A stretch of DNA of 64,000 bases from a virus (IMGVR_UViG_3300028025_003274:4169-68168), one strand, 5' to 3'; shown: positions 4,158 to 53,408, counted from the stretch's first letter. Numbers and translations are program-made. Notes: generated by a model not told the origin, from the sequence alone.

Positions 4158-4190
4158 TCAAATATTTATAATAGAATAAAATAACATAAA

Positions 4191-4679
4191 ATGGCATTAC
4201 TTAGTACAGATGAGATGTTGGGTACCTTGTTCGAGCCCATGCTGCAACACAGGTTTATCATGTATATCGATGGTATCCCTTCATACTTGATTAAAAAAGT
4301 AGGCGGTATAGGATACGATGACGGTGAGGTAATCATAGATCATATCAATAGCTACGTTAAATTCCGTGCAAAGCGCAGGTGGAATGACGTTACCCTTAGC
4401 CTTTATAACCCAGTAACTCCTTCAGGTGCGCAAGCAGTAATGGAGTGGGCTCGTCTCGGATATGAGACAGTAACTGGTAGGGCTGGATACGGTGACTTCT
4501 ACTGGAAGGATATCACTTTCAATGCGATAGATCCTGTAGGTAACGTAGTTAATGAGTGGGTGATTAAGAAGGCCTTCATTAGGAGCGTAAGTTCTTTTGG
4601 AGACTGGGATTGGTCAGCTGATGCTTACACTACAATTGAAATGACCCTAGGAAATTCAGGGATGATCTTGAACTTCTAG
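4191..4679 (+). CDS. Tail tube protein (T4 gp19-like)
   Basis: 162 aa directly after sheath; FEPMLQHRF, WNDVTLSLY, QAVMEW, DPVGNVVNEW pattern. Confidence 0.85.
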   Translation: MALLSTDEMLGTLFEPMLQHRFIMYIDGIPSYLIKKVGGIGYDDGEVIIDHINSYVKFRAKRRWNDVTLSLYNPVTPSGAQAVMEWARLGYETVTGRAGYGDFYWKDITFNAIDPVGNVVNEWVIKKAFIRSVSSFGDWDWSADAYTTIEMTLGNSGMILNF

Positions 4680-4743: not shown

Positions 4744-5337
4744 ATGAAAACAGCAGCCTCAAATTTTATAGAACACGTTAAATCAGAGTGCGAACACTAC
4801 CATATCAAGTGTGATTTGAGGGATACTACATATGTAAAGGTATCAGATTCAATAAAAGCCTCAGGGTACTTCGATGAATCAGTTCCTACCTTAGTATGTT
4901 CTATGAAACGTAAGGATAGCATAGAGATACTGGCCCATGAGTACGGACATTTGACTCAGTGGGTAGATAACATACCCCTGTGGAAGACTGTGGAATATAG
5001 TATGCCAAAGTTAGATGCCTGGCTAGGAGGTGAAGAAGTTCCAGATATAGAAGAACATATTTCAAACTGTAGAGATTTAGAACTAGATAATGAAAAACGC
5101 ACAATTAACATTATAAAGAAGTTCAAACTACCTATAGACTTAGGAAACTACAGGAAGAAAGCCAACAGCTATGTTATGTTTTACAACTATATGCTTATTT
5201 CTAGAAGGTGGTGTACTCCGGAAAACAGTCCATACGGTAATAAAAGGATTATAGAGGCTATGCCAAATAGATTTAATATGAATTATACCAAGCTTCCTAA
5301 AAGATTAGAGAGGATTTTTACAGAAGAAGGTTTCTAA
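4744..5337 (+). CDS. Putative zinc metallopeptidase (HExxH)
   Basis: ILAHEYGH motif with downstream ELDNE; start moved from 4717 (inside terminator) to ATG 4744. Confidence 0.6.
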   Translation: MKTAASNFIEHVKSECEHYHIKCDLRDTTYVKVSDSIKASGYFDESVPTLVCSMKRKDSIEILAHEYGHLTQWVDNIPLWKTVEYSMPKLDAWLGGEEVPDIEEHISNCRDLELDNEKRTINIIKKFKLPIDLGNYRKKANSYVMFYNYMLISRRWCTPENSPYGNKRIIEAMPNRFNMNYTKLPKRLERIFTEEGF

Positions 5338-8325: not shown

Positions 8326-10506
8326 ATGGCCACCCCAGGACAAACTCCATTAGATAAAATAACTAGTGATGTAGCACAAACACAAGTAGAGTTTGCAGCA
8401 ACTACAGATAGTGCAAGAATTTTAAAAGAAGTATTAAAAGATACTAGTAGTCAGTCTCAACTTATTAGTGAGTATTCAACTCAAGTAAAGAACGCCCTTT
8501 TAGATACTCTATCTTTAGCATCTAAATTAGGAACAGAGTATATTACTCTAGAACAGATAGAAAAAAGAAGAAACGAAACTCAAGGATTGGCTAATGGAGT
8601 AGCTGCACAAAGATTAAAAGTAGAACAATCATTAACTAACGCAGGCACTAATGTAGCGGATGTAGAACAAAAAATAGAGGCATTACTATCATCAGGAATT
8701 AAAATAAAGAAAACCGCTCTTACTGTTGATGAGTATAGATTGTATAGAATAATAGGTCAAGAAAAAGCCTTAAAAGCAAATCTAGATAGATTAAATGAAA
8801 TAGAGGGGGCCGTAGAAGCTGGTAATAAGCAGTTTAAAGAGATGAATGTAAAAGCTGCCGCTCTATCTAAAATATTTGGCACCTTCTCAGGAATACCCTT
8901 CCTAAAAGACTTTATGCAGTTTAATATTCTAGCAGATGCTTTTAAAAAAGGAACCAAAGAGGGTTTTACTGAGTTACGGTCTCAATTAAAAAATATACTA
9001 ACAAATCCTTTATTCTTAGCTGCTGCTGGAATAGTAGCATTAATATCTGGTTTTAAAGCTTTAGTAAAATTAGCTTATGACTATGATAAGATTATAACAG
9101 ATATAGCCAACAACACAGCTCTATCTAAAGATTCTACAAAAAGTATGATGGACTCCTTCAGAGCGGTATCTGGAGAGAGTGTTAAATTAGTAGGTTCATT
9201 AGACGCAGCATACCTATCTGTAAAGAATCAGGCAAATGCCCTAATTGAATTAGGAGACAGCTTAGAGACTAATGCATTGTTTACCAACGAGATGATTCAA
9301 AATCAAATGTTGTTGACAAAACAAATGAAAATGTCCAAAGAAGAAGCTGCAGGTATTCAAAAAATGTCTTTACTAACTGGACAGTCAGCCGAAAAGATAT
9401 TGAATACTGCTATGAAGCAGAACACAACTGCAGTATCATACAAAAAGATATTTTCAGAAATATCAAAAGTTAATTCAGAAATAGCAACAGCATATAAAAA
9501 TAATCCGGAATTAATAGCCAAAGCTGTAGTAGAAGCTAATAAACTTGGAATGTCTTTAGAACAGACTAAAAGCATATCTAAAAGCTTGTTAGATTTCGAA
9601 ACATCAATAGCCGGAGAATTAGAATCAGAGCTTTTATTAGGAAAAAGATTTAACTTTGAAAAGGCAAGAGCATTAGCACTTGATGGAAAATCAGTAGAAG
9701 CCGCCAGTGAGTTAATGGGTCAGATAGGTGGCATAAATGCTTTGACCCAAATGAACGTTATCCAACGTGAGAGATTGGCTGCATCTATAGGAATGTCTGC
9801 AGAAGAGCTAACTAAATCTGCTAGAGAACAAGCTATATTAAATTCTTTAGGAGCTCAGAATAAGAAAGCATTAGAAGAAAGGTATGAGATATTAAGAAGG
9901 AATGGGGATGTAGTAGGAATGGAAAAGCTTAAAGCAGAAGCTGCTAGAAAAGAAGGAGGCCAAGCATTAATACAAGACATAGCAAGAGCTAATCTACAAG
10001 ATAGGTTTAATGAGTCTATGGAAAGGATAAAGCAGATATTCACTGAATTAGCTGCTGGTCCTATGATGACTTTTTTAGGAGGTATTACAAAAATATTACA
10101 GAATACTACACTATTAAAAACTGTATTAATAGCAACTGCTGTTGTTGTGGGCGCAATAACTGCAAGTTTAATAGCAGCAGCAGCTGCAATAACTGTAGCC
10201 CTGGGAGGAGCCAATTTAGCAATTGGTGCAGCAGTAACGGGAGGGCTTGTTGGATTAGGAGCTGTTGGGATACCAATGATGCTTAGCGGAACTAATACTG
10301 CAGGAGAAGCGGACATGGCAGTTACAAAACCAACTCTACCAAATAGAAATAATAATTTGCCTAGTTATAATAACAATCAAGGAAATAACTCAGCAGGAAA
10401 TCAAAGAAGTGATGAACAAAGAAGAATTGAGATTTACAACACCTTGAATATGGACGGTAAAGCTGTATCAACAGTTATGAAGACTTCTGACTACAAATAC
10501 TCTTAA
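8326..10506 (+). CDS. Tape measure protein
   Basis: 726 aa, helical Ala/Leu/Lys-rich, two hydrophobic stretches, LLDFETSI..ELE.ELLLG motif, position after chaperones. Confidence 0.8.
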   Translation: MATPGQTPLDKITSDVAQTQVEFAATTDSARILKEVLKDTSSQSQLISEYSTQVKNALLDTLSLASKLGTEYITLEQIEKRRNETQGLANGVAAQRLKVEQSLTNAGTNVADVEQKIEALLSSGIKIKKTALTVDEYRLYRIIGQEKALKANLDRLNEIEGAVEAGNKQFKEMNVKAAALSKIFGTFSGIPFLKDFMQFNILADAFKKGTKEGFTELRSQLKNILTNPLFLAAAGIVALISGFKALVKLAYDYDKIITDIANNTALSKDSTKSMMDSFRAVSGESVKLVGSLDAAYLSVKNQANALIELGDSLETNALFTNEMIQNQMLLTKQMKMSKEEAAGIQKMSLLTGQSAEKILNTAMKQNTTAVSYKKIFSEISKVNSEIATAYKNNPELIAKAVVEANKLGMSLEQTKSISKSLLDFETSIAGELESELLLGKRFNFEKARALALDGKSVEAASELMGQIGGINALTQMNVIQRERLAASIGMSAEELTKSAREQAILNSLGAQNKKALEERYEILRRNGDVVGMEKLKAEAARKEGGQALIQDIARANLQDRFNESMERIKQIFTELAAGPMMTFLGGITKILQNTTLLKTVLIATAVVVGAITASLIAAAAAITVALGGANLAIGAAVTGGLVGLGAVGIPMMLSGTNTAGEADMAVTKPTLPNRNNNLPSYNNNQGNNSAGNQRSDEQRRIEIYNTLNMDGKAVSTVMKTSDYKYS

Positions 10507-20069: not shown

Positions 20070-21099
20070 GGAGAGACTCCTTAATATATTCTCTAGACTT
20101 AAAAACGATGAGAAGCCTGCTAATCTACACTACAATAGTAAAGTGTTGATTATAGATGGGATGAATACATTCCTCAGAAGCTTCGCAGTAGTTAACCGAG
20201 TAAACCTAGCAGGTAATGACGTAGGTGGACTTATTGGATTTTTGAAATCACTTGGGCATGCAATAAAACTGTTATCCCCGACTCGTGTAGTAATCGTCTT
20301 TGATGGTGAAGGCGGGTCGGGCAACAGGAAGTATCTCTACAACCAATACAAAGGAAATAGGGATACCGGGAGAATTATGAATTATAAATCCTTCCAGACA
20401 AAAGGTGCAGAAGAAGATTCTAAATACAATCAGATAACCAGGCTGATAGACTATCTACAATTATTACCTGTGACCTTACTATCTTTTGATAAGCTTGAGG
20501 CAGATGATGTCATGGGGTATTTAACAGGAAGGATCTACAAAGAGTATGACGATTCCCAAGTGTACCTTATGTCTTCAGATAATGATTTTATGCAGCTGGT
20601 AAATGATAGAGTCAAAGTATATAGCCCAACAAAGAAAAAGATATATGGGGTTGAGAATGTGGTAGAAGATTTTGGTATACACCCGGATAACTTCTTATTG
20701 TATAAAGCCCTAGTAGGAGACACATCGGACAATATACCTGGAGTAAATGGATTAGGTGAAAAGAATGTAGTAAAGCTTTTTGAGTTTGTATCAAAGCCAG
20801 AAAGAAAAACATTACAGGACGTTTATCAGGTATGCCAAAACCCTCCTAAGAAGTCAGCACTATATGAAAGAATATTGAGTGTTAGTAAGCAAGTAGAGAT
20901 CTTCTACAAGATTATGAACATCATGGAACCTAATATATCTGAGGAAACGGTTGCAGAGATTATGAAAAAATATTATATTAAGGCTCCGGCTTTAAAGAAG
21001 TATGATTTCATGAAACTATACAATCACGATAAGATGGGAGATGCTATACCGCATTTAGATCTATGGATAAATTTATATTCCACATTGAACAATTATTAA
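20062..21099 (+). CDS. 5'-3' exonuclease / RNase H (FEN family)
   Basis: LIIDGMN, VFDG, YKGNR, EADD, SSDNDF, GDTSDNIPGVNGLG. Confidence 0.9.
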   Translation: MNKERLLNIFSRLKNDEKPANLHYNSKVLIIDGMNTFLRSFAVVNRVNLAGNDVGGLIGFLKSLGHAIKLLSPTRVVIVFDGEGGSGNRKYLYNQYKGNRDTGRIMNYKSFQTKGAEEDSKYNQITRLIDYLQLLPVTLLSFDKLEADDVMGYLTGRIYKEYDDSQVYLMSSDNDFMQLVNDRVKVYSPTKKKIYGVENVVEDFGIHPDNFLLYKALVGDTSDNIPGVNGLGEKNVVKLFEFVSKPERKTLQDVYQVCQNPPKKSALYERILSVSKQVEIFYKIMNIMEPNISEETVAEIMKKYYIKAPALKKYDFMKLYNHDKMGDAIPHLDLWINLYSTLNNY

Positions 21100-45458: not shown

Positions 45459-45786
45459 TAAGGAAAACTTGTACATTATAGAGGTCTTAGATAAGGAGAA
45501 GACGATTAAAGATGTTCTATCAGAACATGAAAGAGATCTTTCTATGGCTATAGTTGAAAAGATATGCTATGCAATGGATAATGATATAAAGAAAATTAAC
45601 ATAGCTAGAATATACACAGACTCAATAGCAATAACCTTACACACATCATTCCCAAACTTCCAGGAGACATTAGAAACAAACATACAGAATCTAATAAAGC
45701 ACGAGGAGTATGAGATGTGCGCCATAGGTAAAAAGCATTTAGATATTCTAAAAGAAAAACCTAATAGAAAATATTTGAATATATAA
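45448..45786 (+). CDS. Protein with C-terminal UVR-like motif
   Basis: IKHEEYEMCAIGKK; in-frame ATG 45448 (MDFDKE) preferred over 45343. Confidence 0.6.
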   Translation: MDFDKENLYIIEVLDKEKTIKDVLSEHERDLSMAIVEKICYAMDNDIKKINIARIYTDSIAITLHTSFPNFQETLETNIQNLIKHEEYEMCAIGKKHLDILKEKPNRKYLNI

Positions 45787-45805
45787 AAATATATATTTAT
45801 ATTTG
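45774..45805 (+). promoter_or_regulatory. Bacteroidota-type promoter for tmRNA, overlapping a late box
   Basis: TTTG (45774) - 20 nt - TATATTTG (45798); ATATTTAT at 45793. Confidence 0.65.
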
Positions 45806-45815
45806 TAAAACATAT

Positions 45816-46224
45816 GGGCCTAACCGGTATCGATTCGTAATCGGAGGGTAGTACCACACGCAGAGACACCGTACTAGTTCTCTTTAAATCTGTACGAAAC
45901 AATAAATGACGAGATGTCAACTATGACCTTCGATGACCTTATGGCCTTCGTTGGTGCCGATGAAGCAACATTTGCTTAATCCGCCGAGGTGTCTACAACC
46001 TCGCTTCAAACAAAGTGGAACACAGAGTTTCCCCGATCGACTCATTAAATAAGGACTGGGGTGGTGGTTAGCTGTCTCCGGACATCCCCTTACTGATCAG
46101 CTTGCAGATCAAAACTACGGTGCAGATGACGGGGGATCTCCCTCTTGATTGTCAGTACTAAGCGTGTGAGATGCTGGTGCTATTGTTCATTGCGAAGACG
46201 TGGGTTCGAATCCCACTAGGTCCA
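45816..46224 (+). ncRNA. ssrA: tmRNA
   Basis: Acceptor GGGCCTA/TAGGTCC-A with G3:U, T-arm GTGGG-TTCGAAT-CCCAC, internal tag ORF after ATAAAT at 45908-45979; CCA not encoded. Confidence 0.92.
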
Positions 46225-46257
46225 CTCAAAGGTTTAGGTTAGGATTATGGTTAAAAC

Positions 46258-46290
46258 GAAGGGGGGTGTCTACCCCCTTTCTCTTTTTTC
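46258..46290 (+). terminator. Rho-independent terminator after tmRNA
   Basis: GAAGGGGG / CCCCCTTT stem followed by T-rich tract. Confidence 0.75.
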
Positions 46291-46308
46291 CTATATTTAT
46301 ATAGGAAT

Positions 46309-46470
46309 ATGTGTCCTATATGTATAACAACTATGGTTCTTAATGGTCTATTCTGGTTAGCAGGATCACTAGGATTATTAAAGGCAGTTAGTTATGTAAA
46401 AAAAAGATACTATCTCTGGAGTAGTAAAAAATGCAAAAAGTGCAGAGATAGAGAATGTTCTTCTGAATAA
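46309..46470 (+). CDS. 53 aa membrane protein with CxxC at both ends (not in ORF track)
   Basis: MCPICITTMVLNGLFWLAGSLGLLKAVSYVKKRYYLWSSKKCKKCRDRECSSE; late box at 46293. Confidence 0.6.
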   Translation: MCPICITTMVLNGLFWLAGSLGLLKAVSYVKKRYYLWSSKKCKKCRDRECSSE

Positions 46471-46521
46471 ATTAGTGTTTTGTAATAATAGGTTTCGGTT
46501 TATTAAAACCTTATTATTATT

Positions 46522-46779
46522 ATGAAAAAATTTCTCTCTCAATTGTTTAATGACAAGAATACTATTAACGAAAAAAGTTTTATTGGATTTTGTGCGTTCC
46601 TAATGATGGTAGTGTTTGCTATTGCAGATATTATAACAGGGTCTTTAGGCAAAGAGCTTATTATTCAAGACTTTATATTTAATTCTTTCTTATGGATGAC
46701 TTTAGGATGTTTTGGTATAGCATCCGTAGATAAGTTTATAAATAAGAAAAACGAAACCAATAACGAAGAACAATTATAA
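46522..46779 (+). CDS. Two-TM membrane protein, holin-like
   Basis: 85 aa, two hydrophobic helices, charged C-tail. Confidence 0.6.
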   Translation: MKKFLSQLFNDKNTINEKSFIGFCAFLMMVVFAIADIITGSLGKELIIQDFIFNSFLWMTLGCFGIASVDKFINKKNETNNEEQL

Positions 46780-46790
46780 AAAACAAATAA

Positions 46791-47048
46791 ATGAAAAAAG
46801 TACCAGTAAACAAATTGATCTCCCTGATTAACGCAGTAAAAGGAAAAAAGCCAGTGGTAATCATAGCTTCTGTAGTCGCCATTGCTGCAGCTATATTTGC
46901 AATAAGTAAAGGCTATATATCAGAAGATATGTTAAATGTAGACGCTGTAGTTAGTTTTATAGAGGACGCTGTTAGTAAAGAAGCCGAAGTAAATGTTATT
47001 GATACTGTGGCTACACAAGTTGTAGTTGATAGTGTAATAACTCAATAA
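46791..47048 (+). CDS. Single-TM membrane protein
   Basis: Basic N-terminus, one hydrophobic helix, acidic C-terminus. Confidence 0.55.
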   Translation: MKKVPVNKLISLINAVKGKKPVVIIASVVAIAAAIFAISKGYISEDMLNVDAVVSFIEDAVSKEAEVNVIDTVATQVVVDSVITQ

Positions 47049-48161
47049 ATGAAGAATCTATCTAAAGAAGAACTACTTAGTAGGCTTGAAGCGATTAATC
47101 GTAGCAATGCTATCATCTATTTTGATCTAAATGGAAAAATTTTAGGCGTTAATGCTATTTTTCTACAAGCAATGGGATATGGTGTAGATGAACATGAGGA
47201 GCTTATTGGTAAGCACCATAGTATTTTTGTATGTGAAGATTATGCAAGGTCATTGGAGTATGAAAAGTTTTGGGATATATTAAGGAGTGGTAAATACTAT
47301 CAAGGAGAATTCGAAAGAAGGAAAAGAGATGGTAGTCTTATCAACTTACAAGCAACATACAATCCTATTTACGATGAGAGTGGTACTATTACTAAAGTAA
47401 TGAAAGTTGCTACTGACATTACTACGATTGTTAATAGTAAAAAACAGATAGATGCTATTAATAAGAGTACTGCAACTATTAGTTTTGATATGGATGGTTT
47501 TATTTTAGATGCCAATGCTGTGTTTTTAGAAACAATGGGTTATAAGGCTAATGAAAAAAACCAAGTAATAGGAAAGCATCATAGTATTTTTGTAACTTAT
47601 GAGTATTCAAAATCAGATGAGTATAGTAAGTTTTGGAAATCCTTAAAAAGTGGTAAGTTTTTTGATGGGATATTTGAAAGAAAAAGAGTAGATGGCTCTA
47701 CTATCTATTTACAAGCCACATATAATCCAGTCTTTGACAGCAAAGGAAACGTTACAAATGTAATTAAAATTGCTACTGACGTTACTGAAGCTGTCAATAG
47801 TAAAAACAAGATAGACACTCTCTCAAAAGATTTACAGATTGAGTTAGATAACTCCAAAAAACTTAAAGACGCAATTGAAGTAGAGAAGAACGCTGCGTTA
47901 AATGATTTGGATATAGTGATGAAGAAAAGCCAATCTGAGCTAATCAAGACGATTGTAAAAGTAGCATTAGGGGTAATTGTTGGTGTTGGATTAGTAACAA
48001 CTGTACTATATTGGATGGCAATTGTTACACAGAAGGATACCCAAATAATTGGATCAACTTGGTCAAACATGTTCAGCGTATTACTGACCAATGCATTTTC
48101 AATAGTTGGAACAATTATGGGTATAAAATATGCTACTCAAGATGATAAAAATAAAAAATAA
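47049..48161 (+). CDS. Tandem PAS-domain protein with coiled coil and two C-terminal TM helices
   Basis: Two repeats of AI..S.A.I.FD..G.IL..N..FL..MGY...IGKHHSIFV...FW..L.SG...G.FER....G..I.LQATYNP..D..G....V.K.ATD; no MCP or kinase output domain. Confidence 0.88.
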   Translation: MKNLSKEELLSRLEAINRSNAIIYFDLNGKILGVNAIFLQAMGYGVDEHEELIGKHHSIFVCEDYARSLEYEKFWDILRSGKYYQGEFERRKRDGSLINLQATYNPIYDESGTITKVMKVATDITTIVNSKKQIDAINKSTATISFDMDGFILDANAVFLETMGYKANEKNQVIGKHHSIFVTYEYSKSDEYSKFWKSLKSGKFFDGIFERKRVDGSTIYLQATYNPVFDSKGNVTNVIKIATDVTEAVNSKNKIDTLSKDLQIELDNSKKLKDAIEVEKNAALNDLDIVMKKSQSELIKTIVKVALGVIVGVGLVTTVLYWMAIVTQKDTQIIGSTWSNMFSVLLTNAFSIVGTIMGIKYATQDDKNKK

Positions 48162-48207
48162 ATTGGTTTATATTTATTATATATATAACTTTGGTAAAAA
48201 TAACAGT

Positions 48208-48379
48208 TATGAACAATACAAACATTACTCCAGAACAGCAACTGATCATAGAAAAAGTTGAATATCAACTATCTAATATAAAAGATCAGGATCTTCTTTA
48301 CTCTTCCATCAGAGAACTTCTTTGTAAAATACCCAATAACTACGATCTAGGGGTAGCAATCAGACGATTATTTAGTTAA
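48208..48379 (+). CDS. Small hypothetical protein
   Basis: PNNYDLG motif; TAACTTTG promoter element at 48186; start near 48209 (MNNT). Confidence 0.5.
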
Positions 48380-48394
48380 AAACATATTAACAGT

Positions 48395-48685
48395 ATGGAA
48401 AAGTTTTCAAAACAGTGGTGCGAGATATGGGACCCCTCTAGGCCTTATGACTTTGATATTGAGGCAATTGTAAAAGATATGCATAACGATAGGTACTATC
48501 CTATATTTTGTGAAGGGTTTGGTTTTAATTGTATTCATAAAGATGGTTATGATAACATATGGTTATCTTTTGGGTATGATAAAAATGGCAATAGTGCTGT
48601 CTGGAGAAGATATAAATCTTTAATAATAGAACAAGAGAAAAAAGCAACCAAGAATGAAAGTAGCAGTATTCAGCGACACTCATAA
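48395..48685 (+). CDS. Hypothetical protein
   Basis: FSKQWCE...DFDI...CEGFGF. Confidence 0.6.
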   Translation: MEKFSKQWCEIWDPSRPYDFDIEAIVKDMHNDRYYPIFCEGFGFNCIHKDGYDNIWLSFGYDKNGNSAVWRRYKSLIIEQEKKATKNESSSIQRHS

Positions 48686-49391
48686 TAAACATAAACAGGT
48701 AATACTCCCGGAGTGTGACATTGCTATATTTGGTGGAGATTTATCCTCTGTGGGACACAGGCACGAAGTAGAAAGCTTTCTTAATTGGTATGGTAAGCAA
48801 CACCAGTGTAAGCACAAGGTATTTATTGCTGGCAACCATGATAAATCATTTGATAAGAAATTCTTCCATAGCTTTGAAGATCATGACTTATTCAAACAAA
48901 ATGAACATCTAGGTAAGCCTGGGTGGTTAGTAGACATGCTGGATAGAGCCAAGGCTGTATTACATATACACTATCTTGAGAATAGTTCTGTCATAATAGA
49001 AGGTATAAAGATATGGGGTAGTCCTATTACTCCAAGCTTTTATAAGCAGTACTGGGCCTTCAATGCCGATAGGAACGAAGATATCCAATCTTATTGGAAT
49101 ACTATACCCAAAGATGCTAACATCGTTGTAACTCACGGACCAGTGCATGGCAAGCTAGATTTTATACCAGAGAGTAGCGAGTATGTAGGATGTATAGATC
49201 TTAAAGCTAAGATAGAGGAAATAAGCCCTATGATGTTTGTTTGCGGTCATATACATTCAGGAAGAGGTATATTTAGGACAGATAAAACATTTTATGTCAA
49301 CGCTTCTATAATGGATAATACCTATAACAAACAAGGAGATCCCATGGTTTTTAATGTAGATGTGGATAACATGTCTATGGATTTTAGATAA
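48654..49391 (+). CDS. Calcineurin-like metallophosphoesterase (MPPED/239FB-like)
   Basis: SDTH, GD, AGNHD, THGP, CGHIH. Confidence 0.9.
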   Translation: MKVAVFSDTHNKHKQVILPECDIAIFGGDLSSVGHRHEVESFLNWYGKQHQCKHKVFIAGNHDKSFDKKFFHSFEDHDLFKQNEHLGKPGWLVDMLDRAKAVLHIHYLENSSVIIEGIKIWGSPITPSFYKQYWAFNADRNEDIQSYWNTIPKDANIVVTHGPVHGKLDFIPESSEYVGCIDLKAKIEEISPMMFVCGHIHSGRGIFRTDKTFYVNASIMDNTYNKQGDPMVFNVDVDNMSMDFR

Positions 49392-49399
49392 AATATCTG

Positions 49400-49424
49400 T
49401 ACATTTGCTACAGATCTTTGAAAT
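49400..49424 (+). promoter_or_regulatory. Bacteroidota -7 element followed by boxA-like GATCTTTGAAA
   Basis: TACATTTG at 49400-49407, GATCTTTGAAA at about 49414-49423. Confidence 0.4.
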
Positions 49425-49452
49425 AAAAAAAGGGCCGATGTAAATCGACCCT
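49425..49452 (-). terminator. Terminator of the minus-strand holin-like gene
   Basis: Minus strand AGGGTCGAT-TTAC-ATCGGCCC-TTTTTTT. Confidence 0.7.
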
Positions 49453-49479
49453 AGTGTTTTAAAAATAAACTTGGTTATA

Positions 49480-49641
49480 CTACTTCTTTTTAGAAGCAAT
49501 AGACCAACCAGCACCGACAAGTGTCATGATGCCTCCGAGTACTTCTTGGAATAATACGTCATCAACTAAACCTTTTGCAACGATAACGCCACCAACAAAG
49601 GTTAATGCATGTCTGATGAGTCCTAATACTTGATCTTTCAT
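49480..49641 (-). CDS. 53 aa two-TM putative holin (not in ORF track)
   Basis: MKDQVLGLIRHALTFVGGVIVAKGLVDDVLFQEVLGGIMTLVGAGWSIASKKK; own late box on minus strand (49688-49695) and own terminator. Confidence 0.75.
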   Translation of the reverse strand: MKDQVLGLIRHALTFVGGVIVAKGLVDDVLFQEVLGGIMTLVGAGWSIASKKK

Positions 49642-49715
49642 TTTGATTGATTTAAGTTTAAAAAAAATTCATAACATTTGATCACATATAAATATCTGAA
49701 AAACCAAAATAACAA

Positions 49716-50086
49716 GCCCGAAGGCCACGGGATCGAAAACTCAGGAACGCCTCTCTAATTGCCTTGAGATAGTATCGACTAGGATTACGAAGCGCACCAA
49801 TCCTCTAAATCGTTAGTTAGCGGTGTAAAGCAACCCCCACTGGAGAATAGGATTGCAATTAAGGTTGATTGGGATAGGGTTGCAGGGTAATGCCTGACCT
49901 GACAGGTTAGAAATGCCAATCGTAAAAGCAGATGTCCACGCACCCATCTTCTGCTTTCCTAAACTTTTGACACGCACGACAACTTGGAATGGTGCACGCT
50001 GAACAAGCTCTGTGAACGAACACGAAGAATACCTCACGGTGCGTAGGTAAGTATCAAGTTCTTCTGACTGTGGGGAATAGACCCAC
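49716..50086 (+). ncRNA. Unannotated structured RNA(s)
   Basis: GC-richer non-coding stretch with many short perfect stems and crossing pairings (see findings); strand inferred from neighbouring tRNAs. Confidence 0.6.
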
Positions 50087-50091
50087 TCTAT

Positions 50092-50168
50092 AGTCGGGAG
50101 GCGTAATGAGGAATGGTTCCAAGTCCTTTAAAAAGGTTGCTTTACCGGTTCGATTCCGGCCCTGACTG
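50092..50168 (+). ncRNA. Degenerate tRNA-like element
   Basis: Acceptor AGTCGGG/CCTGACT-G, T-arm CCGG-TTCGATT-CCGG; no canonical D or anticodon arm. Confidence 0.65.
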
Positions 50169-50169
50169 C

Positions 50170-50285
50170 GAGGCCAAAGTAACTTAAAGAGAGGGCCAAA
50201 TGGAGAATCTCGTAAACTATTCTTAGTTATGACGAGTGCGACCGCCGGTAAAGATCTCAGCAAGTGACACACGGGGAGAGACCCG
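50170..50285 (+). ncRNA. Possible structured RNA between tRNA-like element and tRNA-Leu
   Basis: CTCGT/ACGAG and AACTA/TAGTT stems; ends in TGACA-CA-CGGG-GAGAGA-CCCG hairpin. Confidence 0.45.
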
Positions 50286-50289
50286 ACCA

Positions 50290-50374
50290 GCCTCGGTGGT
50301 GGAATTGGTAGACACGCAAGACTTAAAATCTTGTTCGCTGAAAGCGAGTACGGGTTCGATTCCCGTTTGAGGCA
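50290..50374 (+). tRNA. tRNA-Leu(TAA)
   Basis: Acceptor GCCTCGG/TTGAGGC-A, D-loop GGAATTGGTAGAC, anticodon arm CAAGA-CTTAAAA-TCTTG, long variable arm, TTCGATT. Confidence 0.93.
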
Positions 50375-50376
50375 CA

Positions 50377-50680
50377 GCTGTTGTTCTTTGACATATAAGG
50401 AGAAATAAATTATGGAAACATTATCATTCATTTTAGGGATAGCGTTTGTGGTAGTTATTGTAATTGCAATAGTTGCTGTTTATGCTTTCGTTAAGGTAAA
50501 CAAAACAAGAAAAGAACTAGATGACACTCAAAGAGACGTATCTCATAACATAGAAGAAGTCTATAGGCACATAGGAGATCGTGCTGAAGAGATTATTCGT
50601 ATGGTAGATTCACGTTGTGACAAATTAGAAAACAAATTAATTAACAAAAAGTAAAATAAAATAAGTTAAAGAACAACAGC
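50377..50680. repeat. 16-bp inverted repeat enclosing ORF 50412..50654
   Basis: GCTGTTGTTCTTTGAC (50377-50392) vs GTTAAAGAACAACAGC (50665-50680); 15 Watson-Crick pairs plus one G:U. Confidence 0.8.
50412..50654 (+). CDS. Membrane-anchored coiled-coil protein
   Basis: N-terminal TM helix, C-terminal DSRCDKLE. Confidence 0.7.
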   Translation: METLSFILGIAFVVVIVIAIVAVYAFVKVNKTRKELDDTQRDVSHNIEEVYRHIGDRAEEIIRMVDSRCDKLENKLINKK

Positions 50681-50684
50681 AAAA

Positions 50685-50758
50685 GGACTTATAGCTCAGT
50701 CGGTTAGAGCATCTGACTCATAATCAGAGGGTCCCTGGTTCAAGTCCAGGTGGGTCCA
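50685..50758 (+). tRNA. tRNA with CAT anticodon, most likely tRNA-Ile2
   Basis: GGACTTA/TGGGTCC-A acceptor, TCTGA-CTCATAA-TCAGA arm; overall sequence resembles bacterial Ile2 more than Met. Confidence 0.88.
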
Positions 50759-50780
50759 CAAACTTTAAAAACAAACAGTT

Positions 50781-50951
50781 ATGACAGCACAAGCACTAAC
50801 AATGACAATCGCATGGGTATTATTAATCGCATCATGGATTATCCCATTTGCATTTAAAACAAAAGCAAACTCAAGAGTTATAGGGATTATTATATCTGCT
50901 ATATCTTGTGGCATGTTTTTATCTTCTTGGATCTTCACAATTTTTAAATAA
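50781..50951 (+). CDS. 56 aa two-TM protein (not in ORF track)
   Basis: MTAQALTMTIAWVLLIASWIIPFAF...IFTIFK; AAACAGTT-ATG leader. Confidence 0.55.
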   Translation: MTAQALTMTIAWVLLIASWIIPFAFKTKANSRVIGIIISAISCGMFLSSWIFTIFK

Positions 50952-50956
50952 CAATT

Positions 50957-51181
50957 ATGAAAGCAATATTAGAATTTAACTTACCAGATGATGATAGCGA
51001 GTTTACTTTTGCAACCAAAGGTTCAAAGTATTATGTAGCTCTTTGGGATATAGACCAATGGCTCAGAGCTAGAATTAAGTATGACGATACTGTAACCGGA
51101 GAACAGTATGAGGCATATGAAAAGACTAGAGAGGAGTTAAGAGACATAATGTCCAGCCGGGGTGTTAGCTTTGACGATTAA
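50957..51181 (+). CDS. Hypothetical phage protein
   Basis: MKAILEFNLPDD...LWDIDQWLR. Confidence 0.7.
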   Translation: MKAILEFNLPDDDSEFTFATKGSKYYVALWDIDQWLRARIKYDDTVTGEQYEAYEKTREELRDIMSSRGVSFDD

Positions 51182-51190
51182 AAAATACAA

Positions 51191-51814
51191 ATGAAAAACA
51201 GTAAGTTCTATGTAAAAACTCCTTTCAAAGAAAGACTGATTGACTTTATGAAAGGGTTATTGTTTTGGAAAGGCAGGAAAAAAGGCATGATCCATACTAG
51301 AGATATTAAGTGGGACGACATCCGTGCTGTGTTCTTTCCTAAAGACTTCTACGAGAAGTACAAATACTTAGGATCTGTACCATGGAAGGAAGATGGGGAT
51401 ATCTTTAAGGCTATGGAACCTTTAGTTATATTCATGGACCACAAGGCAAAACCATGGTGGTGTCCAAGATGGTTCTTAAGATTCTTACATTTGTTTGGTT
51501 CTGATAATTCCATTGTAAGAGTTAGGAACAGAGTTTTATCTAACTTGCTACAAAGAATAACTAAAGGCTATTTAATCTTTGATTATAAAACAAAGTGGCA
51601 TGATTACGATCTTAGAATCAGTGTACATGGCACTAGTCAGATGCAGGACCTGTCTGACGCAATAGAACGTAAATTCTACGATGATGGACTTAGGGTAGAT
51701 TTGTATGAACAAATCCTAGGACTAGACCCCCATACAAAGTATAGCTCAGGACATCTACCATCAGATTTAAGAAAAGAACTTGATAGGTTAGAAGATATTA
51801 ACGAAGAAAATTAA
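51191..51814 (+). CDS. Hypothetical phage protein
   Basis: KPWWCPRWFLRFLHLFG motif. Confidence 0.7.
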   Translation: MKNSKFYVKTPFKERLIDFMKGLLFWKGRKKGMIHTRDIKWDDIRAVFFPKDFYEKYKYLGSVPWKEDGDIFKAMEPLVIFMDHKAKPWWCPRWFLRFLHLFGSDNSIVRVRNRVLSNLLQRITKGYLIFDYKTKWHDYDLRISVHGTSQMQDLSDAIERKFYDDGLRVDLYEQILGLDPHTKYSSGHLPSDLRKELDRLEDINEEN

Positions 51815-51820
51815 AACAAT

Positions 51821-52954
51821 ATGCAGAATCAAAACTCAGTATGTTACGTAGCCAGAATAAATGAAATCAAACCAATCGAAGGGGCAGACAAGATTGAACT
51901 AGCTGTTGTAGGTGGATGGAATTGTATTATTCAAAAAGGCCAATATGCAGAAGGAGGCTTAGTAGTTGTAGCGACTACTGACGCTGTTATACCTCAGGAA
52001 CTATCTGATGCCATGAATGTAACCAGTTACTTACGTAAAGGCCAGAGAGTCAGAACTGTGAAACTAAAAGGAGTATACTCAGAATGTTTAATTATTCCAT
52101 TTAGTATGACAGTGGGAAGGACTAAGGTTGTCAAGACTTGGAAAGAAGGAGATGATCTAATGGAAGCAATGGGCGTGTTCAAATATGAACCTCCAGTTAA
52201 AACAATATCATTAGGCGGTGGTAGGAAGATAAAGTACAAAGACAATCCTAACTTTGGTGTTTACTACAAGTTTCCAAACATTAAGAACGTGCCTGATATG
52301 TTCACTGGAAGTGATCTTGTAGAGATTACAAGAAAGATACATGGCACCAATGCCAGATACGGTATTGTAAAAAAGAATAAGCTTTCTATTTGGGATAAGA
52401 TAAAAAGATTCTTTGGAGATCGTTGGGTAGGGTATGAGTTTGTTGTAGGCTCACACAACGTGGAGAAAGGATCTGATTCACAAGGATACTACGATACTAA
52501 TGTATGGTATGAGATTGCAGAGAAGTATAACCTAAAAGAGAAAATGTGGAACATAGCTAAGACTAGAGGTGTGGATGATATTGGTTCTGGAATGGTGTTA
52601 TATGGAGAAATATACGGAGCTGGCATTCAGAAAGGGTATGACTATGGGCTTAGTGAGATTAAGTTTGTTGGGTTTGATGTTATGATCAATGGTAAATATG
52701 TAGACACCCAAAAAGCTAAATACATTATAGAAGCGCACTTTAGAGTACCATATGTGCCTATTCTATACGTAGGATTCTGGTCTAAGGAAACCCAGGATTC
52801 ATATGTGATTGATAATTTTATCGAGGGTACTAAAGTGCCTCATGAAGGAGTTGTTGTGAAGGAAGTATCAGGAGACAGAAGAAAGATTGCTAAGGTTATT
52901 AATCCAGCATATCTTATCTTTGGGGAGAAGCATGATATTGGTGACTCTCATTAA
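51821..52954 (+). CDS. ATP-dependent RNA ligase (DRB0094/Rnl2-like, N-terminal OB domain)
   Basis: IEGADKIELA OB domain; motif I KIHGTN, YGEIYG, FDV, EGVVVK, AKVIN. Confidence 0.88.
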   Translation: MQNQNSVCYVARINEIKPIEGADKIELAVVGGWNCIIQKGQYAEGGLVVVATTDAVIPQELSDAMNVTSYLRKGQRVRTVKLKGVYSECLIIPFSMTVGRTKVVKTWKEGDDLMEAMGVFKYEPPVKTISLGGGRKIKYKDNPNFGVYYKFPNIKNVPDMFTGSDLVEITRKIHGTNARYGIVKKNKLSIWDKIKRFFGDRWVGYEFVVGSHNVEKGSDSQGYYDTNVWYEIAEKYNLKEKMWNIAKTRGVDDIGSGMVLYGEIYGAGIQKGYDYGLSEIKFVGFDVMINGKYVDTQKAKYIIEAHFRVPYVPILYVGFWSKETQDSYVIDNFIEGTKVPHEGVVVKEVSGDRRKIAKVINPAYLIFGEKHDIGDSH

Positions 52955-52983
52955 AAGTATATTTAAACGCATACTGGTTTTTG

Positions 52984-53058
52984 ATACCGCTTTACCGTTA
53001 GGAATGGGTATACCCCAGAACAGAATACAAAGTGGTATGACAGCTCGGAAAGACGAGC
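52984..53058 (+). ncRNA. Structured element upstream of tRNA-like gene
   Basis: 10-bp stem ATACCGCTTT/AAAGTGGTAT followed by GACA-GCTCG-GAAAGA-CGAGC hairpin. Confidence 0.55.
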
Positions 53059-53062
53059 AAAT

Positions 53063-53165
53063 AGTCAGGTGGCGGAATTGGTAGACGCATAGGTTGAAAT
53101 AGGATTTGCTTTAAAAAGCTACCTAACTCATTAAGGGTGTACAGGTTCGAGTCCTGTCCTGACTG
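53063..53165 (+). ncRNA. Class II tRNA-like RNA with 26-nt anticodon loop
   Basis: Acceptor AGTCAGG/CCTGACT-G, Leu-type D-arm GGCGGAATTGGTAGACGC, stem TAGGT/ACCTA, variable arm ACTC/GGGT, T-arm ACAGG-TTCGAGT-CCTGT. Confidence 0.8.
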
Positions 53166-53180
53166 CAAAAATAAAAGTAT

Positions 53181-53396
53181 ATGAGTCCATTAGAGTTAGC
53201 AACTAAAATCTATAACCATGTTACTGGTCTTAATAGAAGCAGAGAACAGTGGGATGAATGGGATGATAAACGAGAGATTGAATTTATTAAAAATCTAATT
53301 GTTGATAACGAACATAAACCAGTAAGAGAACATAAACGTTTTACCGATGAATGGGGTAAGAGTGATTGGAGAGACACTGGTGAAATGAAAGGATAA
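53181..53396 (+). CDS. Hypothetical protein
   Basis: 71 aa ORF, A-rich leader. Confidence 0.55.
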   Translation: MSPLELATKIYNHVTGLNRSREQWDEWDDKREIEFIKNLIVDNEHKPVREHKRFTDEWGKSDWRDTGEMKG

Positions 53397-53408
53397 AAAA
53401 ATAATATT

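Follow-up and report, generated by a model that had tools for sequence, protein, structure and literature searches.

The three hairpins that recur ahead of tRNA and tRNA-like genes in the window (the whole 64-kb stretch of viral DNA analyzed here) are copies of an undescribed, portable RNA module, one of them canonical and two diverged. The module consists of 5′-UGAC, usually followed by an A, a 5-bp stem closed by a G-C pair, a purine loop of the GAAAGA type with six and sometimes seven bases, an A, and a short G-poor tail, and its conserved part amounts to only ~26 nt. All three hairpins were confirmed where an earlier reading, made without database searches (the sequence-only reading), had placed them, 4–5 nt ahead of tRNA-Leu and two tRNA-like genes. 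The features are as follows:

49706–49965, plus strand: nc1a, a large conserved non-coding RNA heading the plus-strand unit (context, outside the hairpin proper)
49967–50064, plus strand: nc1b, a conserved structured "cargo" RNA of ~100 nt, its 3′ stem closing directly ahead of hairpin 1
50065–50086, plus strand: hairpin 1, diverged copy; TGACT, stem GTGGG/CCCAC, 7-nt loop GAATAGA
50087–50091, plus strand: linker after hairpin 1, 5 nt (TCTAT), a presumed RNase P leader
50092–50169, plus strand: tl1, a tRNA-like RNA with a 7-bp acceptor stem, T arm CCGG-TTCGATT-CCGG and a conserved central domain
50170–50264, plus strand: nc2, the spacer RNA from tl1 to hairpin 2, fold z-score only −0.69
50265–50285, plus strand: hairpin 2, diverged copy; TGACA, CA, stem CGGG/CCCG, loop GAGAGA
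50286–50289, plus strand: linker after hairpin 2, 4 nt (ACCA)
50290–50375, plus strand: tRNA-Leu, anticodon taa (ARAGORN; Rfam tRNA 56.9 bits)
52955–53037, plus strand: nc3, the RNA from the RNA-ligase stop codon to hairpin 3, folding as a long stem-loop
53038–53058, plus strand: hairpin 3, canonical copy; TGACA, stem GCTCG/CGAGC, loop GAAAGA
53059–53062, plus strand: linker after hairpin 3, 4 nt (AAAT)
53063–53166, plus strand: tl3, a member of the AGTCAGG...CCTGACT family of tRNA-like scaffolds with an enlarged anticodon region

This threefold recurrence in the window exceeds chance. Across both strands, only four hairpins combine a GA[AG]T?AGA loop with a stem of 4 bp or more; hairpins 1–3 account for three of them, and the fourth, at 20862, has an ATAT stem and lacks TGAC. 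No hairpin of this kind accompanies the tRNA-Met at 50685. With R1, a covariance model derived from 50 foreign copies of the hairpin, the scores were 38.9 bits (E 1.6e-8) for hairpin 3, 11.7 bits (E 0.66) for hairpin 1 and 7.8 bits (E 8) for hairpin 2, and because of the latter two low scores we refer to hairpins 1 and 2 as diverged copies, whose membership in the family rests on position, not on model score. In three other loci (L047, L050, and L119) a canonical hairpin follows an RNA homologous to nc1b and is thus the positional equivalent of hairpin 1, the GAATAGA loop of which is also present in L098. Hairpin 2 recurs with its upstream RNA, nearly unchanged, in L103, the hairpin copy itself being identical, and the 21-mer of hairpin 3 was found identical in IMG/VR, bacterial genomes and cultured phages.

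The observation on the window copies that the stems differ in sequence yet pair, while TGAC and the purine loop are kept, was borne out by covarying stems across the family. Among 63 distinct hairpins gathered by a pattern without a pairing requirement, the 315 stem cells comprised 270 Watson-Crick, 27 G-U, 0 A-C or C-A and 18 other combinations, and these Watson-Crick and G-U counts against zero A-C therefore place the fold on the sense strand, most simply as RNA. For 50 distinct copies picked for full pairing, the covariation score was 0.84 vs. 0.28 in shuffles (0/500 shuffles reached 0.84), with 64 cells changed on both sides. When the search was anchored on the tRNA-like scaffold alone, so that the hairpin was not forced by it, the hairpin was present in 10 of 49 distinct upstream contexts, with a variant in one more, and all 10 keep TGAC and GGAAAGAC. 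The flanks of the fixed hairpin were compared over 138 distinct contexts: an A follows the stem in 124, G occurs 4, 5, 6, and 17 times at positions +2, +3, +4, and +5, all four bases are about equally common before TGAC (A 34, C 37, G 30, T 37), and no conservation is seen from −12 to −1. The hairpin is oriented as the nearest ORF of at least 150 aa in 95/112 cases upstream and 106/117 downstream.

These data bear on the notion of a sigma-70-type promoter, with TGACA as the −35 element and the hairpin as spacer, which we judge to be very improbable. A consensus scan did find ATGACA, 17 nt and AATAGT at 53037–53065 (9/12 positions matched), and T often precedes TGAC among the scaffold-linked copies, but over the 138 contexts there is neither a T preference before TGAC nor a −10 element after it, and the 27 G-U vs. 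0 A-C pairs are the mark of a single-strand fold. Furthermore, the region holds 13 promoter-like sites vs. 11.6 ± 3.3 in shuffles, a start 7 nt past the putative −10 would land inside the tRNA-like gene, and the carriers include Bacteroides phages. Promoter identity was consequently rejected on the missing −10, the strand-specific pairing and the lack of enrichment over shuffles.

The hairpin was found in at least 119 IMG/VR stretches by one pattern and at least 118 by another, as well as in 45 bacterial genome stretches and 102 cultured-phage records. The carriers are phages of Bacteroidota, Bacillota, Pseudomonadota, Actinomycetota, and Cyanobacteriota, their hosts spanning at least six phyla, and include the cultured Bacteroides phage BS-TP2, Bacillus phage 055SW001, Vibrio phage 1.012.O, and Microcystis phage Mvi-JY20. 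Each phage record has 1–4 copies, and in the cultured-phage records listed or inspected the hairpin carries no annotation or, twice, is overlapped by a protein gene. A search of 5,426 complete E. coli genomes yielded no copy, and R1 gave a single match in the one whole bacterial genome searched with it. Tandem 21-nt units, in 2 to at least 4 copies, occur in four loci (L336, L347, L350, and L375), and three tandem copies lie inside one cellular tmRNA, where no RNase P site follows; a tmRNA with the module was seen in 1/61 genomes sampled in its order.

Searches against Rfam 15 at the gathering score returned only tRNA and tmRNA, both for the window and for 27 other carrier loci. At E ≤ 5 there were zero matches on the hairpins or upstream RNAs within 45500–53400 (nc1a likewise gave none), and the 61 nt at 53015–53075 had none at E ≤ 10. 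The hairpin is accordingly not a described Rfam element, a possibility that the sequence-only reading had raised against itself, and this covers the hammerhead, twister, pistol, hatchet, HDV-like, GOLLD, ROOL, and skipping-rope families. Other known elements were also considered and rejected: an intrinsic terminator (A follows the stem in 124/138, the stem is only 5 bp, and no window copy appeared in a terminator scan), a CRISPR or solitary repeat (judged by repeat architecture, the tandems being contiguous 21-nt units or whole repeats of 78 nt that lack unique spacers), and a REP/RAYT repeat (1–4 copies per phage, one R1 match in one bacterial genome, and no transposase noted in the 15 commonest neighbor clusters). 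REP elements are species-specific, number tens to hundreds per genome and have been proposed as 3′ stabilizers of upstream mRNA. Like the module, they lie between genes, carry a conserved tetranucleotide on the 5′ side of a hairpin, occasionally form tandems and have a proposed 3′ stabilizing role, whereas the phage hairpin occurs in 1–4 copies per phage and has the same sequence across phyla.

The linkage of the hairpin to tRNAs is strong but not exclusive. A same-strand tRNA called by ARAGORN begins 4–7 nt after the stem in 27 of 139 distinct contexts, at 4 nt (7), 5 nt (12), 6 nt (6) or 7 nt (2), against a chance expectation of ~0.04 calculated from 185 tRNAs in 1.34 Mb. The 27 tRNAs bear 14 ARAGORN labels (12 amino acids, "Stop" and "???"), and the acceptor stems that follow the hairpin vary widely. 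In the remaining 112/139 contexts an ARAGORN tRNA is absent within 10 nt; by a looser closure test, 34 of 105 scored contexts have a downstream tRNA or tRNA-like fold (~4 of them apparently spurious) and 71 do not. The proposed positional linkage hence holds far above chance, while the scattering independent of tRNAs that had been named as counter-evidence is partly seen. Away from tRNAs, the hairpin abuts long closing helices of stem-closed RNAs without a single-stranded linker, or lies 8–36 nt ahead of ORF starts or 15–40 nt ahead of intrinsic terminators. In Bacteroides phage BS-TP2 it begins 2 nt past the stop codon of a protein gene, and in Microcystis phage Mvi-JY20 a promoter-like site leads into ~300 nt of non-coding RNA and then the hairpin, with an annotated tRNA-Leu 3 nt further on. 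Conversely, none of 13 scaffolds in 46 related loci has the hairpin, R1 giving zero matches in their 548,384 bases, from which it follows that tRNA-like genes can do without it.

The RNAs on either side of the window hairpins recur in other loci. The tRNA-like RNA tl1, called by neither ARAGORN nor Rfam, has homologs in L035, L204, L289, and L061, with compensatory changes in the acceptor stem (AGTCAGG/CCTGACT, ATTAGG/CCTAAT, and TGTTAGG/CCTGACA) and in the T stem, and a canonical hairpin precedes the L204 copy. Homologs of tl3 occur in at least 12 loci (nhmmer); it scores 42.9 bits with Rfam tRNA (gathering score 29) with a 25-nt insertion in the anticodon loop, and when introns are allowed ARAGORN reports it as a tRNA-Stop(tta) that contains a 13-nt intron. 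The nc1a region lacks a long plus-strand ORF and has, as judged by eye, a homologous stretch in L050. For nc1b, nhmmer gave a match to L021 (E 8e-9), and its homologs lie within tRNA-like scaffolds in L021 and L102 and ahead of the canonical hairpin in L047, L050, and L119. The longer stems described just upstream of two of the hairpins were recovered: nc1b ends in a covarying stem in which 6/6 pairs are changed on both sides in at least one homolog (6-sequence alignment), and the minimum-energy fold of nc3 (z-score −3.31), which has homologs ahead of hairpins in L100 and L115, includes a predicted 10-bp closing stem that abuts GACA and ends at 53039.

The suggestion that the upstream RNAs form one small-ncRNA family did not hold, as they belong to several unrelated families and the BS-TP2 hairpin follows a protein gene. 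That of tRNA-like elements as punctuation fared better, since they alternate with other RNAs in arrays: the order scaffold, 40–80 nt RNA, hairpin, next scaffold is found in L102, L064, and L115, and in L047 nc1b exactly fills the gap from the scaffold 3′ end to the hairpin. The closing stems of cargo RNAs abut the module. Partners are exchanged at this point, as in 59 of 62 pairs sharing an upstream family the hairpin meets a different downstream partner. The window and L103 are a further case: the last 30 nt of nc2 differ by one base, and the hairpin 2 copy is followed in L103 by an AGTCAGG scaffold where the window has tRNA-Leu.

Such exchange could also arise from an element acting as DNA, a single-stranded hairpin with a 5′ tetranucleotide serving as a recombination or nicking site that shuffles modules, by analogy to the ends used by HUH enzymes or to T4-type stem-loop cassettes. 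The exchange points lie exactly beside the hairpin (the sequence is identical through ACCA and then continues as tRNA-Leu or scaffold), nc1b is found both inside and outside scaffolds, the occurrence in a cellular tmRNA is sporadic (one of the 61 genomes), and G-T pairs are tolerated in single-stranded DNA too. We nonetheless regard this explanation as decidedly doubtful: the module is co-oriented with transcription in 85–91%, lies within promoter-to-terminator non-coding units, and is present in only 1–4 copies per phage, the 15 commonest neighbor clusters showed no transposase or nickase family, and tight spacing relative to the mature 5′ end of the tRNA belongs to the RNA level.

The reading we tentatively prefer, while giving it somewhat less than an even chance, is that of a portable boundary module at which an RNase P cut leaves a protective 3′ hairpin on the upstream RNA. 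Its starting points, namely the motif, its fold, strand and spread, and the spacing to tRNAs, are matters of observation. The module would fold in the sense transcript at the joints of independently folded units of phage polycistronic transcripts, most characteristically 4–7 nt ahead of the first base of a tRNA or tRNA-like gene. RNase P would cut at that first base, and the upstream RNA, which may be structured cargo (nc1b and nc3) or an mRNA such as the RNA-ligase message, would then end in the hairpin and a 3–6 nt tail. Such a tail would be too short for the grip of a 3′ exonuclease, and the upstream RNA would therefore gain a defined, protected 3′ end. In this scheme the hairpin would cap the preceding RNA while the tRNA-like elements served as punctuation, and release of that RNA by RNase P is plausible.

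On the other side of the ledger for a boundary role, a plain protective hairpin needs neither a fixed loop nor UGAC, the 112 contexts in which no ARAGORN tRNA lies within 10 nt were counted as well, tandem 21-nt units exceed the needs of a 3′ cap, no RNase P site comes after the three copies in the cellular tmRNA, and some scaffolds (all 13 in the 46 related loci) are hairpin-free.

There is precedent for the use of tRNAs or tRNA-like structures in 3′-end formation in mitochondrial tRNA punctuation, plant mitochondrial t-elements, MALAT1-mascRNA, and the tRNA-like units of murid herpesvirus 68. As in these systems, a tRNA or tRNA-like fold directly follows another RNA (all three window copies have one), and if RNase P acts here, a tRNA-processing cut would set the RNA end and a structure would protect the new 3′ end. 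The system described here differs in belonging to bacteriophages, in that the putative cap is a short fixed-sequence hairpin and not a triple helix, in that the hairpin also occurs where no tRNA follows, and in that we infer the cleavage. A second parallel is the recombinant "tRNA scaffold" for RNA expression, in which an engineered RNA is presented inside a tRNA, together with RNAs that are embedded in tRNAs in nature. Relatives likewise carry nc1b in the anticodon position of a conserved tRNA-like scaffold, although this is a natural family with many different inserts, and nc1b in the window is not embedded but followed by the hairpin and a separate tRNA-like gene.

It is also conceivable, although quite unlikely, that the module is an autonomous processing site, where cleavage within or next to UGACA or in the G-poor tail, by an endonuclease or by the RNA itself, separates units and leaves the hairpin capping a 5′ or 3′ end, with or without a tRNA downstream. 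In favor of this, the module lies between units of every kind (ORF/tRNA-like, RNA/RNA, and ORF/ORF), self-contained RNA devices typically keep their sequence across phyla, and the tail is A-led and G-poor. Against it, no Rfam self-cleaving ribozyme or other family matched, even at E ≤ 10 on the 61 nt, the ~26 nt of conserved sequence are few, and the stem is below the need of RNase III, for which 5 bp is too short.

A third view of the module is that of a binding site for a protein or RNA acting on the transcript or polymerase, analogous to boxB, which would serve terminator read-through or other control of long untranslated phage transcripts; we consider this unlikely. In the boxB hairpin of lambdoid nut sites, a small peptide grips the purine-rich loop that tops a 5-bp stem, and the module broadly resembles this hairpin in its 5-bp stem and conserved purine-rich GAAAGA loop, in a stem that varies while the loop is kept, and in its location in intergenic phage transcripts, often before terminators. 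The invariance of loop and 5′ flank beside a covarying stem fits such a site, the 21-nt tandem spacing suggests cooperative or multiple binding, and many copies either lie just past an ORF and 15–40 nt ahead of an intrinsic terminator or stand first in a non-coding unit. The module differs from boxB in its loop of six (sometimes seven) bases, one base longer in the six-base form, in its G-C closing pair, in having UGACA directly at the stem, and in hosts far beyond the enterobacteria, with none in the E. coli genomes. Clustering of 1,395 ORFs of at least 80 aa, a size range that would miss small peptides, within 4 kb of the hairpins in 156 loci yielded no family in more than 14 loci, the largest being ordinary phage genes, and no N-like gene was found among these ORFs. 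The boxA plus N arrangement of a nut site was hence rejected, positions −12 to −1 having no boxA-like element and the neighbors (ORFs of at least 80 aa only) no common protein family. Nor would a binding site explain the fixed 4–7 nt spacing to tRNA starts; hosts in at least six phyla make a single phage protein family unlikely, and no universal host factor is named.

The boundary module that we prefer may have an additional partner, as the retention of UGAC, the closing G-C pair and the loop across many phyla suggests a further specific contact with something widely conserved. A bolder extension, which we hold to be possible and yet on balance improbable, is that a factor common to all bacteria reads the UGACA-GAAAGA hairpin as a universal RNA tag, and that phages of at least six phyla build modular ncRNA operons from this tag and the scaffolds, in which cargo RNAs would be cut out, capped and presented. 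Candidate readers would be RNase P, the ribosome with the tmRNA machinery, or RNA polymerase, and the tag would be portable enough to have entered a cellular tmRNA.

Conservation of a 21–26 nt element this wide points to a shared host process, and the element marks whole ncRNA islands left blank by annotation, where cargo RNAs and large RNAs lie together with scaffolds whose inserts can be exchanged. A capping role on RNAs that RNase P releases, if real, would extend to bacteriophages the tRNA punctuation familiar from organelles and animal nuclei, and the module could provide a compact natural part for producing stable, defined RNAs in bacteria. Should it prove to be a universal tag, it would represent a phage-wide grammar of RNA processing that has so far gone unnoticed.

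The sequence-only reading had placed three hairpins of one design (TGAC, a paired stem and a GA(A/G)(T)AGA loop) 4-5 nt before tRNA or tRNA-like genes, and direct reading of the window sequence located all three:

50065-50086, copy 1: TGACT, GTGGG, GAATAGA, CCCAC; 5 nt before the tRNA-like element at 50092
50265-50285, copy 2: TGACA, CA, CGGG, GAGAGA, CCCG; 4 nt before tRNA-Leu(taa) at 50290
53038-53058, copy 3: TGACA, GCTCG, GAAAGA, CGAGC; 4 nt before the tRNA-like element at 53063

Both strands of the window together contain four hairpins with this loop type whose stems have 4 bp or more, namely these three copies and a fourth hairpin without TGAC. ARAGORN and Rfam identified a tRNA-Leu, a tRNA-Met (50685) and a tmRNA (45816-46227) in the window, and no such hairpin precedes the tRNA-Met. 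The element after copy 3, tl3, matched the Rfam tRNA family at 53063-53165 (42.9 bits), its anticodon loop enlarged by an insertion of 25 nt; when introns were allowed, ARAGORN labeled 53063-53166 a tRNA-Stop (anticodon tta, 13-nt intron). The element after copy 1, tl1 (50092-50169), was called by neither ARAGORN nor Rfam. We consider it a real tRNA-like RNA because in its four homologs (L035, L204, L289, and L061; L-numbers denote the other loci compared) the acceptor stem and the T stem have both changed in a compensatory manner. Amid these tRNA and tRNA-like genes lies an RNA ligase gene (51821-52951; N-terminal OB fold, Pfam RNA_ligase and PHA02142), and the same region encodes a calcineurin-like phosphoesterase (48654-49388) and a protein containing two PAS domains (47049-48158); the ligase and phosphoesterase could form an RNA-repair set.

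Sixty-three distinct hairpins were gathered with a pattern free of any pairing demand. Their 315 stem cells comprised 270 Watson-Crick pairs, 27 G-U pairs, no A-C or C-A, and 18 others, and the closing pair was G-C in 60 of the 63. The presence of G-U without A-C indicates that only this strand forms the fold. Among 50 distinct copies chosen for full pairing, four of the five pairs had changed on both sides (64 cells) and the covariation score was 0.84 vs. 0.28 in shuffles, the former being reached by none of 500 shuffles. Because two of the three search patterns fixed TGAC and the loop, the third was anchored solely on the scaffold, i.e., the tRNA-like family that includes tl3 (67 stretches, 49 distinct upstream contexts). 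The hairpin was present in 10 of these 49 contexts, every time with TGAC and GGAAAGAC, in agreement with the claim that both are kept, and one further context had a variant with a GAGATA loop. Rare variants elsewhere carry CGAC or AGAC in place of TGAC, or have GAGAGA, GAATAGA, or in one case a longer loop. No position upstream of TGAC is conserved in 138 distinct contexts of the fixed hairpin; an A directly follows the stem in 124 of them, and G is scarce at the next four positions.

The nearest long ORF runs in the same direction as the hairpin in 95 of 112 cases on the upstream side and in 106 of 117 on the downstream side, and in three cultured phages the hairpin lies within non-coding units that run from promoter to terminator. 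These observations make RNA the simplest carrier of the fold, with single-stranded DNA of the same strand as the alternative.

The hairpin is widespread. The pattern of TGAC, loop and scaffold start occurred in at least 119 IMG/VR stretches (123 matches among those listed), and the commonest hairpin alone, TGACAGCTYGGAAAGACRAGC, in at least 118 further IMG/VR stretches. By our own calculation, as for our other chance expectations, a 21-mer in which two positions are twofold would turn up by chance about once per 596 billion bases. The same TGACAGCTYGGAAAGACRAGC was found in 45 bacterial genome stretches, whose record titles name Flavobacterium, Sphingobacterium, Pedobacter, and Parabacteroides, several Clostridia, Gilliamella, Proteus, Pseudomonas, Vitreoscilla, Snodgrassella, and Methylococcaceae, as well as an Actinomycetota MAG, Binatia, and others; a search of 5,426 complete E. 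coli genomes found no copy. In cultured phages, 102 records matched a 30-nt query built on copy 3, including 61 phages of Vibrio, 9 of Ralstonia, 7 of Bacillus, and 6 of Gordonia, along with Sinorhizobium phiM9, Erwinia phiEt88, a crAss-like phage, and Microcystis Mvi-JY20, in which the hairpin lies 3 nt before a tRNA-Leu. A longer query also matched Bacteroides phage BS-TP2. Bacillus phage 055SW001 and Gordonia phage Sour are further named carriers. Among the matches listed or inspected, the annotation beneath the hairpin in cultured phages was "none" or, twice, a hypothetical protein. The 46 IMG/VR loci related to the window through its RNA-ligase gene lack the hairpin: it precedes none of their 13 tRNA-like scaffolds, and R1, a covariance model built from 50 copies outside the window, had no match at E ≤ 1 in their 548,384 bases. 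In DNA searches, the whole region matched cultured phages only at tRNAs, and the L068 and L355 stretches had no match.

Linkage to tRNAs, as claimed for the window, held for a part of the family. The hairpin-only searches gave 139 distinct contexts, de-duplicated by short flanks so that related phages are still counted more than once. Of these, 27 had a same-strand tRNA, called by ARAGORN, that begins 4-7 nt past the stem (14 different labels), and 12 more had a tRNA 11-300 nt away; the remaining contexts are of other kinds. A looser, ad hoc test for closure of an acceptor stem and T arm flagged 34 of 105 scored contexts, about 4 of them apparently spuriously. The acceptor sequences in these contexts are quite different from each other, which rules out pairing of TGAC with a GTCA of the next acceptor stem, as TGAC is kept before wholly different acceptors and in non-tRNA contexts. 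The latter are of three kinds: long ORF-free regions in which the hairpin abuts the long closing helix of an uncharacterized RNA and may directly adjoin the helix of the preceding RNA; an ORF starting 8-36 nt downstream; and an intrinsic terminator 15-40 nt downstream. Four of the ORF-free regions, 0.5-1.2 kb in length [L229 (minus) 150-1100, L238:3250-4080, L253:380-1400, and L171 (minus) 4060-4600], lie between SSB-like and DNA-polymerase genes and contain several RNAs, each with a long closing helix ACTATCA...TGATAGT and with the hairpin at the joints; Rfam matched only tRNAs in them. In Vibrio phage 1.012.O (L377:1600-1670; MG592397.1), the annotated tRNA-Tyr is on the strand opposite to the Rfam tRNA (33.1 bits), whose T loop is GGTTCGAGTCC, and the whole non-coding unit, with its promoter-like site and terminator, is antisense to the flanking structural genes.

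Upstream of the hairpin we found not the single small RNA family that had been proposed, but several recurrent and unrelated RNA families, with homologs elsewhere for all three window RNAs (nc1b, nc2, and nc3, upstream of copies 1, 2, and 3, respectively). The cargo RNA nc1b is a conserved structured RNA of ~100 nt (window 49967-50064). It contains invariant blocks, and all six pairs of its terminal stem are changed on both sides. It precedes canonical hairpins in L047, L050, and L119, whereas in L021 (3828-3925) and L102 (1070-1170) it is embedded in tRNA-like scaffolds, at the anticodon position. Its 5′ start, TGACA followed by a stem strand, resembles the hairpin, and it has no Rfam match. 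nc2 recurs in L103, and nc3 in L100 and L115. In BS-TP2 the hairpin begins 2 nt past the stop codon of a protein gene, gp31, and 4 nt separate it from the tRNA-like gene that comes next. A ~260-nt, G+C-richer non-coding stretch (window 49706-49965) heads the unit; it comes after a holin gene transcribed divergently (49480-49641, Pfam Phage_holin_10), is near-identical in L050 (minus strand) and has no Rfam match.

The scaffolds have conserved ends (5′ AGTCAGGTGGCGGAAT.GGTAGACGC, 3′ ACAGGTTCGAATCCTGTCCTGACTAC) and a quite variable insert of ~25-130 nt in place of the anticodon arm, and often occur several per phage, in arrays. The BS-TP2 scaffold (L280:2526-2633) has a different acceptor stem. 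Members are as follows:

window 53063-53166
L018:769-908
L001:5081-5169
L015:1882-1989
L032:4799-4932 and 5059-5169
L021:3571-3678 and 3797-3956
L115:1400-3700
L014, L017, L013, and L042

TGAC resembles part of a scaffold 3′ strand; in the window, neither a 5′ half nor a T arm was found upstream that would make it a remnant of such a strand or part of a permuted tRNA. When we asked whether the hairpin travels with its upstream or its downstream unit, 3 of 62 pairs that share an upstream family also had the downstream family in common, and only 4 pairs had a common downstream unit. A rival explanation is that the hairpin is a site in single-stranded DNA at which modules are exchanged; such DNA, of the same strand, could carry the fold, and RNA would do so most simply.

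Some hairpins are repeated in tandem. Units of 21 nt occur twice in L336 and L347, three times in L375, and at least four times in L350, between two tRNA-Leu genes. In a 322-kb viral contig [L170 (minus) 8885-9060], a 78-nt repeat occurs three times in tandem, each with a canonical hairpin, and a fourth hairpin lies 133 nt before the repeats. The copies of L375, from an Actinomycetota MAG, are inside the pseudoknot region of a tmRNA gene (L375:6429-6824; 63.9 bits), which we take to be cellular because it is directly downstream of smpB (Pfam SmpB, 170.6 bits). Such copies did not emerge as a clade feature, as under strict filters R1 matched only the original genome, 1 of 61 sampled in the order. 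The window tmRNA (45816-46227; Rfam, 67.4 bits) has counterparts at L013:5088-5466 and L015:6934-7315, and its tag predicted by ARAGORN, DEMSTMTFDDLMAFVGADEATFA, resembles that of L015; in related contigs the tmRNA is beside large tRNA arrays.

Neither the hairpin nor the upstream RNAs match any Rfam 15 family, so the motif is not an element already described there. A search with 61 nt had no match even at E ≤ 10, with ribozyme families included, a result that speaks against the rival proposal of an autonomous cleavage site. The exact 16-mers were in none of the papers of the library searched, which gave only short chance matches, and keyword searches returned no description of the motif. A 2023 catalog of ~10,000 viral candidate RNAs (PMC10690425) has supplementary tables that could include it.

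As to function, readings as a promoter and as a terminator both failed their defining tests. The constant parts of the module are a short stable hairpin and an A-led, G-poor tail of 3-6 nt, after which the first base of a tRNA fold very often comes. In all bacteria RNase P cleaves at the first base of the tRNA. After that cut, the upstream RNA would end in the hairpin and a tail too short for 3′ exonucleases. We tentatively favor, at somewhat below an even chance and judging from sequence, a protective 3′ hairpin left by RNase P on the upstream RNA, together with a putative conserved partner. A protective hairpin accounts for the hairpin-tRNA spacing, for arrays alternating scaffolds and cargo RNAs, for L047, where nc1b and the hairpin exactly fill the space between two scaffolds, and for one cargo with its hairpin meeting different downstream partners. 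It leaves the fixed loop and UGAC unexplained, as well as the tandem, tRNA-less, and tmRNA copies, which is why the partner is added and our confidence is restrained. The fixed loop and UGAC are also where a rival explanation, a boxB-type binding site for a protein, comes into consideration; clustering of 1,395 ORFs of 80 aa or more within 4 kb of hairpins at 156 loci identified no dedicated partner protein and no family shared by more than 14 of these loci.

In organelles and animal cells, the tRNA fold serves as punctuation and structure protects the new 3′ end. The reading we favor, a protective hairpin left by RNase P, would share this principle, the tRNA fold marking the cut and structure guarding the end it leaves. 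The hairpin itself and its wide distribution, in phages from at least six phyla, appear to be undescribed, as do the modular non-coding RNA islands that it marks.
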